In this document: piece after piece, positions 38,262 to 44,206 of the stretch
Layout of the letters: each line of letters starts with the position of its first letter
Position numbering within the stretch: the first letter of the stretch is position 1
Program-made: the position numbers and the translations under genes
Origin: a virus
Taxonomy: Duplodnaviria; Caudoviricetes
Reading direction: 5' to 3' (one strand)
Virus record (IMG/VR): IMGVR_UViG_3300033075_000428
Span: 64,001 to 128,000 of that record
DNA: 64,000 nucleotides
The notes under the pieces: generated by a model
What the model was told of the DNA's origin: nothing
What the model saw: the letters and a program-made list of their open reading frames with translations, nothing else
The model's database searches: none

Positions 38262-38347
38262 TTTACAACTTCATTAAATATGTTAAGCCCAACAACTAGG
38301 GGGGAATTGTCGGGCTTAACACGAGGCAACGGAAAACAAAAATTGAG

Positions 38348-38765
38348 TGGACGTGGGGGGAGTCGAACCCCCGTCCGAACATCGGTCTATCTCATGGAAT
38401 TACAATCATCGGTCTCAGTTAGTAAGTACTATCATCATTACGTCGAGACCTTCATGATGACGCCCGTCAGTTTGATCATGTCCTACACACGAGCAGTACG
38501 GATTCAACTCCTGTGTAGTAAGTTCATAATGGAGCCTTGACTCCTGCGACACGATGTTCAACTACCTATGAACTAATGCTGACATCGTGGTATCAAACAG
38601 CCTGAGCGTATTGATACTGGGGAACATTAGCCTCTGGGTAGAGGTTAATGACCTTAGCTTGCTTGTTGCCAGTTATGGCTTGTCCAGTTGTATTTACATG
38701 CTCCACCAGACTAGCATGGATTGCCACTTCGACTTCTCTTTGCCCGTCGAAACCTTTACACGCCC
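38348..38765 (-). ncRNA. ssrA: tmRNA (418 nt); tag peptide (A)GNKQAKVINLYPEANVPQYQYAQAV encoded at 38670-38593
   Basis: 5' GGGCGTG...TTCGAC; 3' GGGGGTTCGACTCCCC-CACGTCCA with a G3.U70 pair; ATAACT-GGC resume context. Confidence 0.92.
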
Positions 38766-41541: not shown

Positions 41542-41883
41542 TTACTCAGCCCAACGAGTTGGTTCAATCCGTTGGACTAAACTTACTGCAAGGCGAAAAG
41601 AGCTCATCTGTGTTTCCTCACAGAAGCATGCGGTAGCAGTGAGCTGATTGTCTAAGTCAGGCTCATTGAAGAACGCAACGCTATTGCCACTATCATGCAA
41701 TTGTGTCGTAGCCAGCATGAGCTTGTTTTCCGTCTTCACATCCAGAAAGACAATCGTCTCATTGTTCCACTCACGAAACTCTTCTGGAAATTTCAGAGCG
41801 TAACTTGCCAATGCGTGTGCTCCTTGAACATATCGATAATGATGCGGAAGGTCTCGACGAATCAAGACATACATCTTTTTCAT
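41542..41883 (-). CDS. peptidyl-tRNA hydrolase type 2-like protein
   Basis: MYVLIRRDL...VQGAHA...W...IV.L...F.EPDLDNQLTA; start at ATG 41883 overlapping the upstream TGA. Confidence 0.75.
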   Translation of the reverse strand: MKKMYVLIRRDLPHHYRYVQGAHALASYALKFPEEFREWNNETIVFLDVKTENKLMLATTQLHDSGNSVAFFNEPDLDNQLTATACFCEETQMSSFRLAVSLVQRIEPTRWAE

Positions 41884-42488
41884 TTCGATTCGTCTGCTGT
41901 GTTTTCCACCACAAGGTCTTCCCGACGAATGTTCGTATTGTGAGGAAATACGTAATTCGGGTGAGACAGGAGCCAATGCGCGAATGCTTCACCACGAGCT
42001 TCTTTCCACAACGCATCCTGTTCTTCTCGTGTTGGAACAACAATTGGAGTTGGGTCACCAAACTCAAGTGAGTCATGAATAGTTATGACAACTTTCCACT
42101 GTTGCGGGGTCAACCGATTTGTGAAGTTCGGTACTTCAACTTTGTGGTATGGTGTTCCACTACGAAGTGAATACGCCAAGTTGAAAATACGGAAAGCAGT
42201 ACAGCAGCTGTAATGCGCATTCTCGATAGCGAAGTACTCTCTGTTCATCTCACTATATGTACTGAGAGGAATAGGATTAGCAAGTGTACCGTCTTCCTTA
42301 GTGATTCCAGCAACTTGACGAAGTGCTTCGTACACTGAGTTGATTTCAAGAAGCTTGTCAAGCCTCTCTCCTGGAAGCTCAACAGATTCAAAATACATCT
42401 TCAATGCATTTTTCGTGTTGTTCTCTCTGTTCAATCGAATGAATCTCGTAAGGAACTTGATTACATTCTTTGCTTGTTCTCTCGTCAT
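41880..42488 (-). CDS. hypothetical protein co-transcribed with the Pth2-like gene
   Basis: 202 aa; R..NLAYSLRSG.PY.KVE motif. Confidence 0.7.
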   Translation of the reverse strand: MTREQAKNVIKFLTRFIRLNRENNTKNALKMYFESVELPGERLDKLLEINSVYEALRQVAGITKEDGTLANPIPLSTYSEMNREYFAIENAHYSCCTAFRIFNLAYSLRSGTPYHKVEVPNFTNRLTPQQWKVVITIHDSLEFGDPTPIVVPTREEQDALWKEARGEAFAHWLLSHPNYVFPHNTNIRREDLVVENTADESK

Positions 42489-42515
42489 GATTGTACCCTT
42501 TGGGTGTGTTGAAAA

Positions 42516-42590
42516 TTAAACAGTTTCAAAGACATTACCAACATGCCCCAATGGAGGGTCACGAGTTGAGTTCTATGTGAAGAAGTTCAT
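42516..42590 (-). promoter_or_regulatory. amber-interrupted leader peptide MNFFT(UAG)NSTRDPPLGHVGNVFETV
   Basis: GAGGA SD, ATG 42590, TAG 42575-42573, TAA 42518-42516. Confidence 0.6.
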
Positions 42591-42618
42591 GTGTTCCTCA
42601 TTGTGAAAATTGAACGTG

Positions 42619-42691
42619 TTCCCTGTGCTGGAATTGAACCAGCGCGGTCATGAATTTAGAGTTCACCGCTCTACCACTGAGCTAACAGGGA
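42619..42691 (-). tRNA. tRNA-Sup(CUA), amber suppressor
   Basis: Cloverleaf: TCCCTGT/ACAGGGA acceptor, GCTC/GAGC D-stem, GTGAA-CTCTAAA-TTCAT anticodon arm, GCTGG-TTCAATT-CCAGC T-arm. Confidence 0.9.
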
Positions 42692-42695
42692 ATAT

Positions 42696-42733
42696 AAAAA
42701 GCCCAACGTGCTTCGTGGAAGAGAACGTTGGGC
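42696..42733 (-). terminator. intrinsic terminator immediately upstream of the suppressor tRNA
   Basis: GCCCAACGT-N15-ACGTTGGGC-TTTTT. Confidence 0.75.
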
Positions 42734-42761: not shown

Positions 42762-42833
42762 CTAGGCATTCAAGGGGTCTGTCTGGGTCATGTTGATTGA
42801 TGGATTTGCGTGCATGAACATCGGGGTCAGCAT
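42762..42833 (-). promoter_or_regulatory. UAG-terminated leader ORF MLTPMFMHANPSINMTQTDPLNA*
   Basis: ATG overlaps the upstream gene's stop (ATGCTGA); ends at TAG 28 nt before the terminator stem. Confidence 0.45.
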
Positions 42834-43108
42834 TTTCGTTTAGCAGTCGAGGTGCTGACCTTGCTCTTTATAACGATCGTGTGCGTGAAATATGAGTACC
42901 GTGGGTCATCAGCACCAACAATCCACACAACGTCTGACAAGGAGTAGAGTTCTGAGATTTCTTCTTCTTCTGAAGGAATATCCCAAGGAGTATCCTTAAG
43001 ATAGGTCTTGACCCCTTCGACGATGTTAGCGACAATTTGTCGGTCGATAGAACCAGTGATGCGATTCTTCCGATATCGGACAACGCTGAGAGAGATAATT
43101 TCATCCAT
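42827..43108 (-). CDS. hypothetical protein
   Basis: Start placed at MDEIISL. Confidence 0.55.
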   Translation of the reverse strand: MDEIISLSVVRYRKNRITGSIDRQIVANIVEGVKTYLKDTPWDIPSEEEEISELYSLSDVVWIVGADDPRYSYFTHTIVIKSKVSTSTAKRKC

Positions 43109-43232
43109 GGAGAAGAATCCTGAGCATATAGAAGAGCGCACCAAAAGCAATGGCGAGTGTGATAACCTTTGCTACGGCAGAACCAACGTTTGGTTTAGTT
43201 GACATAGGTACAATGTTTGAGTTGAAAGAAAA

Positions 43233-43549: not shown

Positions 43550-43675
43550 TCATGAAAAGAACAACATCCAGACGAGAACAAACAACAAGGCAAACAGAGG
43601 TATTGAGAATAGAAGCACACCGTGAAGTGTAGCAGTACCAGTCACCTTATCCCCTGTAAATCCCTCATTCTGCAT
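43550..43675 (-). CDS. 41-aa single-pass membrane peptide between two tRNAs
   Basis: AGAGGA SD; MQNEGFTGDKVTGTATLHGVLLFSIPLFALLFVLVWMLFFS. Confidence 0.55.
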   Translation of the reverse strand: MQNEGFTGDKVTGTATLHGVLLFSIPLFALLFVLVWMLFFS

Positions 43676-43701
43676 GTTTTCAATCCTCTATCTTAACTTA
43701 G

Positions 43702-43775
43702 TGGAGCCTGATGGGTTTGAACCATCGACCTGCCGATTATGAGTCGGATGCTCTAACCAGCTGAGCTAAGACTCC
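43702..43775 (-). tRNA. tRNA-CAU (Ile2-like or elongator Met)
   Basis: Cloverleaf; CGA-CTCATAA-TCG arm resembles lysidine tRNA-Ile2; lacks the initiator GGG/CCC stem. Confidence 0.88.
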
Positions 43776-44206
43776 TTGTTCCAGTTTCCACCATAGTCTA
43801 CAATACGTAGCTTATTCGTGGAAGTAACACCGAATGAATCAATCTTCCCTTCAACAAGGGAGCTATTTGCAGAACAAACATACATTACAGTCTTGTCAAA
43901 TTCCACATGCCCTTGTGGTTCATTGAACGAGTGCTGACCTGCTAAAGATTTTACCTCAGGCTGAACGGAGAACAACCCTAGAGGAAATGTGAAGTACGTT
44001 GGATTAAGACGTGTTTCCAACGAGAATGGTGCGTCGAAAAACACGTCAGCTGTCTTGTCTCGATATTGCTTCCAAACCTTACGCTCTTGCAAGTTGCTTA
44101 GCAATCCAAGTAAGAAAAGCTTGGTGTTACTAAGTCTTGGGAATTTGAATGCTAAGCCAAAAGCAAATATGACAAAGCGATAGCTTCCTATAAGCATCTT
44201 GGGCAT
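43766..44206 (-). CDS. minimal protein-kinase-like protein
   Basis: AFKFP...N.QE..VW...E.K..SFG...IVDYG; last codons overlap the tRNA. Confidence 0.45.
   Translation of the reverse strand: MPKMLIGSYRFVIFAFGLAFKFPRLSNTKLFLLGLLSNLQERKVWKQYRDKTADVFFDAPFSLETRLNPTYFTFPLGLFSVQPEVKSLAGQHSFNEPQGHVEFDKTVMYVCSANSSLVEGKIDSFGVTSTNKLRIVDYGGNWNKES

Follow-up and report, generated by a model that had tools for sequence, protein, structure and literature searches.

The window analyzed here is a stretch of 64,000 nucleotides that corresponds to bases 64001-128000 of a 190,353-bp virus record. On its minus strand, a tRNA gene with the anticodon CUA is followed, after a spacer of 129 nt, by two genes whose ends overlap (Table 1). 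The upstream one, which we call gene X, encodes a protein of 202 aa and the downstream one a Pth2-like protein of 113 aa. Within the spacer lies a mini-ORF, hereafter the leader, whose Shine-Dalgarno (SD) sequence GAGGA starts 18 nt and whose ATG starts 27 nt after the tRNA; its stop codon is 27 nt before the gene X ATG. A preliminary description of this DNA had read the leader as GAGGA, 4 nt, ATG, four codons, TAG and codons for N-S-T-R-D-P-P, and we confirmed this anatomy on the minus strand. Five codons precede the TAG, and AAC TCA ACT (N-S-T) separates it from the R-D-P-P codons. The frame holds no ATG, GTG or TTG from the TAG up to these codons, so RDPP can be reached in frame solely by reading the TAG, and the claim that the motif is made only upon UAG readthrough was upheld. 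By analogy with known arrest peptides, the Pro codon CCT would occupy the P site and the Pro codon CCA the A site at the proposed arrest, with a nascent chain of only 12 residues. The P-site Pro codon is 69 nt before the gene X AUG, in keeping with the "about 60 nt" given earlier for the distance from the stall to the next start.

Table 1. Features of the leader locus in the window, and leaders at related loci (positions on the respective contig)
Feature	Position	Strand	Basis or remark
Strong hairpin with U-run	42696..42733	-	sequence reading; forms in the fold; 4 nt upstream of the tRNA
Amber-suppressor tRNA, anticodon CUA	42618..42691	-	ARAGORN; Rfam tRNA 63.8 bits; CCA not encoded
Leader mini-ORF including SD	42599-42516	minus	reverse complement read as in the preliminary description
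Leader SD, GAGGA	42595..42599	-	sequence; 4 nt before ATG
Leader first part: ATG (42590-42588), AAC TTC TTC ACA, TAG	42573..42590	-	sequence
Proposed gating amber codon TAG	42575-42573	-	next base A
R-D-P-P codons CGT GAC CCT CCA, proposed arrest site	42552..42563	-	sequence and homologous leaders
Leader tail: 11 codons and TAA (42518-42516)	42516..42551	-	tail without conservation in relatives
Predicted helix, 5' arm	42549..42563	-	minimum-free-energy folds; overlaps the R-D-P-P codons; -6 to +8 counted from the P-site Pro codon
Predicted helix, 3' arm: gene X SD (AAGGG) and AUG	42486..42502	-	minimum-free-energy fold
Gene X, 202 aa, all-alpha, first proposed controlled gene	41880..42488	-	homologues P0025, P0026, P0006-P0024
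Pth2-fold hydrolase-like gene, 113 aa	41542..41883	-	start overlaps gene X stop (TGA) as ATGA
L025-L030 leader: ...Y-UAG-VNRA-RSPP and 8 codons	L025 3916-3978		SD-led; same layout as window
L035-L037 leader: ...T-UAG-A-RAPP-stop	L036 2126-2158		canonical motif
L016-family leaders	L016 301-339; L018 3908-3940; L019 3902-3940; L020 292-330; L031 289-327

The tRNA has the cloverleaf and CUA anticodon of an amber suppressor according to both ARAGORN and Rfam. It can be aligned with the tRNA(CUA) of L025, a metagenome contig that carries a related locus, and the alignment includes a compensatory change in the anticodon stem. The hairpin ahead of the tRNA was not listed by a terminator scan; it may be a leaky terminator or the boundary of an upstream unit. 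Coding density over the 190-kb genome is 92% under code 11 and 92.4% with TAG as Gln, TAG ends 25 of the 276 called genes, and no gene in the genome is split by TAG or needs TAG readthrough. The 25 TAG-ended genes, the absence of split genes and the nearly unchanged coding density rule out TAG recoding (code 15). Since the code is standard and no gene needs TAG readthrough, the leader is the only evident target of tRNA(CUA). The phage does use SD sites, as AGGA precedes 23% of its called starts compared with a background of 5.5%. The minus strand yielded no sigma-70 promoter in the interval from the tRNA to the leader, and the spacer is not repeated elsewhere in the genome. Rfam models matched only the tRNA in this region, both at the gathering threshold and with E values up to 10, and these scans gave no match to a theta or HDV-like ribozyme directly after the tRNA.

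The surroundings of the tRNA gene hold several other small features. A 23-codon ORF (42762-42833, minus strand) overlaps the stop of the preceding gene (ATGCTGA) and ends in TAG just ahead of the hairpin. Two small SD-led ORFs with hydrophobic tails, of 41 and about 33 codons, lie between tRNA genes (43550-43675 and 43108-43204, both minus strand) and may encode small membrane proteins. A 146-aa ORF (43766-44206, minus strand) has its TAG stop inside the 5' part of a tRNA(CAU) gene (tRNA-Met, 43701-43775, minus strand). A tmRNA (38345-38765, minus strand; Rfam 100 bits) is located 4 kb from the leader, with a predicted tag that ends in ...YAQAV where ...ALAA is usual; contigs L022, L025 and L027 likewise carry a tmRNA near the module. 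Finally, GATC is strongly depleted throughout the genome (63 sites in 190 kb, where base composition predicts roughly 700), which suggests avoidance of a GATC-specific restriction or Dam-linked system.

The earlier identification of the gene downstream of the leader as a Pth2 gained support from structure prediction. Against Pfam PTH2 (PF01981) the 113-aa protein scored 18.9 bits (E 0.0019), under the gathering cutoff of 23, and it matched phrog_3668 with an E value of 6e-13. The AlphaFold2 model has a pLDDT of 88, and its top 11 Foldseek matches all belong to the Pth2 family, with probability 1.00 and TM scores of 0.67-0.74; the best (2zv3, 3erj, 1q7s and 1xty) reached 0.70-0.74. The modeled protein has a Pth2 fold, and its hydrolase activity is putative. 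Gene X gave no sequence match in the PDB, no Foldseek fold match and no recognizable family, with an AlphaFold2 core at pLDDT 75-90. An Atlas lead that assigned it to DUF6075 (score 0.88) was below the level that counts and was not confirmed by hmmscan; we rejected it.

As to chance, a six-frame reading of the 190-kb genome contains RDPP a single time and R-[AGSDP]-P-P five times, in no case within a called gene or protein. A composite pattern (SD, ATG, 1-6 codons, TAG, 2-9 codons and R-x-P followed by P or a stop) is present once in the genome compared with 0.05 expected per simulated genome, both being post hoc figures. GAGGA followed by ATG is found 50 times, mostly away from gene starts. 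Independent support comes from homologous leaders in other phages.

Gene X at first seemed an orphan, as single-sequence searches returned the query alone. Homologues of the Pth2-like protein were found on metagenome contigs, one of which, L016, carries a remote gene X homologue upstream. Searches from this homologue yielded 19 homologues, a full HMMER search added two further gene X relatives (P0025 and P0026), and the Pth2-like alignment, used as a profile against IMG/VR and genome contigs, led to L035-L037 and L039. DNA searches for close relatives returned generic tRNA matches or nothing. Single-sequence searches of IMG/VR with the Pth2-like gene or a neighboring virion gene gave no relatives, and alignment A4 and P0026 gave no matches as IMG/VR queries. 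Relatives of a 378-aa neighbor (31-44% identity), in Lak and Tenacibaculum phages and metagenome contigs L002-L015, lack the locus. Sequences of the L016 family (L016, L018-L020 and L031) are interrelated and were counted as one lineage; in all, eight distinct leaders were compared.

Four other lineages have an SD-led mini-ORF with an in-frame TAG at codon 3-5 and then an R-x-P motif, ahead of a gene X homologue and a Pth2-like gene. A motif of the [RTG]xPP type after an in-frame TAG in homologous leaders, which the preliminary description had proposed as a check, was therefore found in four further lineages, with the variants RSPP, RAPP, RAP-stop and RPP-stop. The L025-L030 leader lies 32-33 nt after a tRNA(CUA), with gene X and the Pth2-like gene downstream. 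In L036 the leader is followed by gene X, the Pth2-like gene, a 198-aa gene and tRNA(CUA); in L035-L037 about 600 nt separate the Pth2-like gene from this downstream tRNA. In the L016 family, the leaders read ML-UAG, 4-6 variable codons and RAP-stop, or RPP-stop in L018. Contig L039 (CAZOXV010000067.1) is a partial exception: its motif is H-K-P-P, which misfits R-x-P-P and is reached via two TAGs in the tail of the preceding 68-aa gene. This contig, from a Methanosarcinales MAG, has gene X, the Pth2-like gene and tRNA(CUA) after the two-TAG tail, which ends PP-TAA, and the CCUCCUUA of the tail is able to pair with the SD UAAGGAG. The contig probably belongs to a phage and was mis-binned. Compared with its relatives, the window version is distinctive in three respects: the Asp of its motif, a tail that is long and unconserved, and a tRNA that immediately precedes the leader.

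A Pth2-like gene comes after gene X in every lineage that bears the leader. The window protein shares 53% identity with that of L025; with that of the L016 family it shares 47% when the full length is aligned and 54% in the best local alignment. One gene X lineage, L022-L024, is without a leader: in the stretches read, these nearest gene X relatives of the window (40% identity, ClpP synteny) have neither a leader nor a tRNA(CUA) or Pth2-like gene. L038 has no leader, and L017 has a Pth2-like gene in a different context without gene X. In the L016 family, the Pth2-like gene contains a conserved in-frame TAG at codon 34, where the window copy has Glu (L016 989-1291; L018 4395-4697; L020 772-1074; also L033/L034). 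This TAG causes gene callers to split the gene into 33-aa and 66-aa pieces, and it would act as a second amber "lock" in the leader operon. The same family has a promoter-like site (TTGACA-17-TATATT in L016) and then a hairpin and U-run about 20 nt before the leader SD (L016 187-272; L018 3825-3885; equivalent positions in L019, L020 and L031). By this reading of the sequence, the leader transcript would carry a terminator-like hairpin at its 5' end; in the window, a similar hairpin stands before the tRNA.

What the leaders share is not their DNA, which is no longer alignable between lineages. The SD, a short opening, the in-frame TAG, R-x-P-(P/stop) and a stop are all kept, and the motif is in frame with ATG...TAG in all homologous leaders. 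Arg is encoded by CGT in the window, L019 and L020, by AGG in L025 and by AGA in L016, L018, L031 and L036. Ala codons alternate between GCA and GCC and Pro codons among CCT, CCG and CCA, and the remaining codons vary freely. The in-frame TAG is invariant while its adjoining codons vary, and the base after the UAG is a purine in all eight distinct leaders. Synonymous changes of Arg, Ala and Pro codons together with a constant frame argue for selection on the peptide and not on the RNA sequence. Covariation between the leader stop and the anticodon was not seen, because every tRNA read has the anticodon CUA; in the four lineages where the pair was compared, the TAG of the leader agrees with this anticodon. 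Taken together, a real and conserved leader at this locus is very likely on the comparative evidence.

In minimum-free-energy folds, the gene X SD and AUG are paired with a segment that overlaps the R-D-P-P codons. In the window, 12 of the 17 nt of the 3' arm are paired, with a mean pairing probability of 0.66. The burial of the gene X start site ranks 228 among 275 genes of the genome (83rd percentile) and is no outlier, and the fold z-score of the 151-nt leader (-0.7) is not significant; the structural case from this genome alone is weak. Across the lineages, however, each has a predicted helix that hides the gene X SD and AUG and is made of unrelated, lineage-specific sequence. Measured from the P-site Pro codon, the 5' arm falls between -6 and +26 nt, inside or edging the footprint of a stalled ribosome, and the distance from this codon to the gene X AUG is 55-71 nt in all lineages. 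The helix of the L016 family has 12 bp and begins 1-2 nt past the leader stop, and L031 shows a G-to-A substitution by which a G-U pair becomes A-U. By analogy, this layout of leader and predicted helix is the classic geometry of arrest-controlled translation. The loop between the helix arms in the L016 family contains a nearly invariant stretch of about 18 nt (...AGTTAA..AACAAATCA; L016 340-397 with its counterparts in L018-L020 and L031, alignment A5) that is more conserved than the leader codons.

Several known systems offer parallels. The leaders of ErmCL/ErmBL and Cat86/CmlA are very short, and a ribosome stalled on them melts a hairpin that hides the SD and turns on the next gene; the trigger is an antibiotic in the exit tunnel, whereas here it would be stop-codon readthrough. 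In TnaC and at Pro-stop, termination stalls on peptidyl-Pro-tRNA. Leaders of the L016 family, which end in RAP-stop or RPP-stop, would stall in the same way, whereas in the window leader the A-site codon is a sense codon for Pro, and nothing points to a tryptophan-type ligand. Autoregulation of prfB, the gene for RF2, uses an early in-frame stop as a sensor of termination efficiency, with escape by a +1 frameshift within the same gene. The leader described here would share the early in-frame stop that senses termination and would differ in its escape route, a suppressor tRNA, and in its output, a downstream cistron.

The motif itself places the leader beside the RAPP/RGPP peptides, a likeness drawn in the preliminary description that the literature bears out. 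These peptides have a C-terminal core R-x-P-P in which x is Ala or Gly and Ser, Asp and Pro are partly permissive (for Asp, PMC12992588). The window leader has such a core in RDPP, and its relatives carry RSPP, RAPP, RAP-stop or RPP-stop; RDPP, RSPP and RAPP are all named as fully or partly arrest-competent (PMC12992588, PMC10951233). RAPP and RGPP arrest in varied N-terminal contexts and resist EF-P (PMC12992588; PMC10951233). The Ala-to-Asp change in ApdA/ApdP, which creates RDPP, partly keeps arrest, and RDPP is highly under-represented, ranking with the four-residue motifs that bacterial proteomes avoid most; RSPP is placed in the same category (PMC12992588). RDPP is a weaker variant than RAPP or RGPP. 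As in ApdA, ApdP, ApcA, SecM (with RAGP) and the Streptomyces RAPP/RGPP upstream ORFs, the core lies late in a small upstream ORF, and a stall with Pro-tRNA in the A site would open structure over the next ribosome-binding site (PMC12992588, PMC10951233). The motif is conserved among homologues at the amino-acid level, as in that group, with one variant (H-K-P-P in L039). Unlike the known peptides, the leaders here have 10-24 codons and about 12 residues at the stall, their motif stands behind an in-frame UAG, they are phage-encoded beside a suppressor tRNA, and the genes that would be controlled are gene X and a Pth2-fold protein. RAPP-like monitoring peptides bear an N-terminal export or membrane signal, and no such signal was found in the sequence of the window leader. 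With neither a signal peptide nor a membrane segment, it has no means of sensing protein export; its sequence is that of an arrest leader and not of a monitoring substrate.

We propose the following mechanism. Ribosomes would initiate at AUG 42590. When release factor 1 wins at UAG 42575, they would leave after five codons, and the helix 42563-42549/42502-42486 would then keep the gene X SD and AUG hidden. When the UAG is read by the phage tRNA(CUA), whose gene lies 27 nt upstream, translation would continue until the ribosome stalls in the manner of a RAPP-type arrest: R-D-P would occupy the exit tunnel and P site, and the A site would hold Pro-tRNA. The stalled ribosome would cover the 5' arm of the helix, free the SD and AUG, and allow translation of gene X and of the ATGA-coupled Pth2-like gene. 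Leader translation, suppression of the UAG by the phage tRNA, arrest and unmasking of the gene X start site are the steps that we infer. That an amber-gated arrest leader couples translation of gene X and the Pth2-like gene to suppressor activity seems to us the best-supported reading of these sequences, and a probable one. It is speculation that the stall also supplies peptidyl-tRNA to the Pth2-like enzyme.

Other explanations make different use of the same observations. The leader could be gated by UAG without a true arrest, such that a readthrough ribosome melts the helix in passing, or terminates near the gene X SD and re-initiates, with R-x-P-P acting as a mild pause. The leaders of the window and L025 run on for 8-11 codons and end 22-27 nt before the gene X AUG, which suits coupling or re-initiation, and the partial arrest competence of RDPP fits as well. 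However, leaders of the L016 and L036 families stop with the motif or immediately behind it; the AUG is then 58-65 nt away, too far to favor re-initiation, and the retention of Arg through three codons is unexplained without a role for the peptide; we consider a switch without arrest unlikely. Alternatively, the TAG could be no regulatory gate but a Gln codon of TAG-recoded relatives that persists here as a relic, in which case the leader would be a constitutive arrest peptide or a plain upstream ORF. The nearest Pth2-like homologues indeed translate only with TAG as Gln, no TAG-terminated gene was found in L016, L018 or L020, and distant relatives such as Lak phages are recoded. Yet the window and L025, two standard-code lineages in which other genes end in TAG, both retain the TAG of the leader, and it is invariant beside varying codons. 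Furthermore, a tRNA(CUA) is found within 0.7 kb in three lineages, the window included, and the consistent in-frame TAGs of the L016 family are confined to the leader operon, namely the leader and codon 34 of the Pth2-like gene. A relic Gln codon is, in our judgment, decidedly improbable.

The conserved element could also reside in the RNA alone, as an SD-hiding hairpin or a processing signal in the tRNA trailer, with an untranslated mini-ORF and a motif that is a by-product of the anti-SD sequence CCUCC. In the window, L025 and L039, the two Pro codons (CCU CC-; CCU CCA in the window and L025) do resemble an anti-SD, and conservation could in part act at the RNA level. Moreover, theta ribozymes are known at the 3' side of phage suppressor tRNAs (PMC10879173), although the window tRNA differs from those systems in having no ribozyme match beside it among the Rfam models. 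Against an RNA-only element, every leader has a properly spaced SD and ATG with the motif always in frame, its Arg, Ala and Pro codons change synonymously, and the motif codons are outside the helix in L036 and the L016 family; we hold this reading to be very improbable. A chance ORF in the 129-nt spacer, picked out post hoc, would be in keeping with the 50 GAGGA-ATG pairs of the genome and the non-significant fold z-score. The rarity expected of the composite pattern speaks against it, and its recurrence at the same place in four other lineages with unalignable leader DNA contradicts it, which leaves coincidence exceedingly improbable.

Returning to the amber-gated arrest leader, a designed precedent exists. 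In a synthetic switch (Liu, Qi, Yanofsky and Arkin 2011), a TAG in a leader peptide makes downstream expression dependent on amber suppression (summarized in PMC6412442). That switch was engineered, transcriptional via the tna leader and built for unnatural amino acids; the window leader would be natural and translational. Phage "code-change modules" that group suppressor tRNAs with translation factors have been described, and standard-code phages with acquired suppressor tRNAs were noted (bioRxiv 10.1101/2021.08.26.457843). Neither that study nor the one on theta ribozymes (PMC10879173) mentions a leader peptide, arrest motif, Pth2 or tmRNA, and our literature searches found no published description of a natural amber-gated arrest leader.

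Collectively, these data argue that the leader is probably a real and unpublished switch for the next two genes. We lean slightly toward the broader view that it represents an ancient module in large phages, standard-code ones included, in which a mini-leader tests the suppressor tRNA against release factor 1 and RxPP arrest then switches on gene X and a Pth2-type hydrolase. Were this true, "orphan" phage suppressor tRNAs would gain a dedicated natural target, and the module would be a checkpoint for genetic-code change during infection. The leader element resembles switches that synthetic biologists have built by hand, and stop-codon readthrough would be a new input in the repertoire of arrest-peptide switches. 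Gene X and the Pth2-like enzyme would be pointed to as factors that act once suppression is under way. A natural leader that turns UAG readthrough into operon expression would be the first concrete sensor and target for tRNAs that read stop codons, and it would bear on why standard-code phages carry such tRNAs and on how recoded phages time their code switch.
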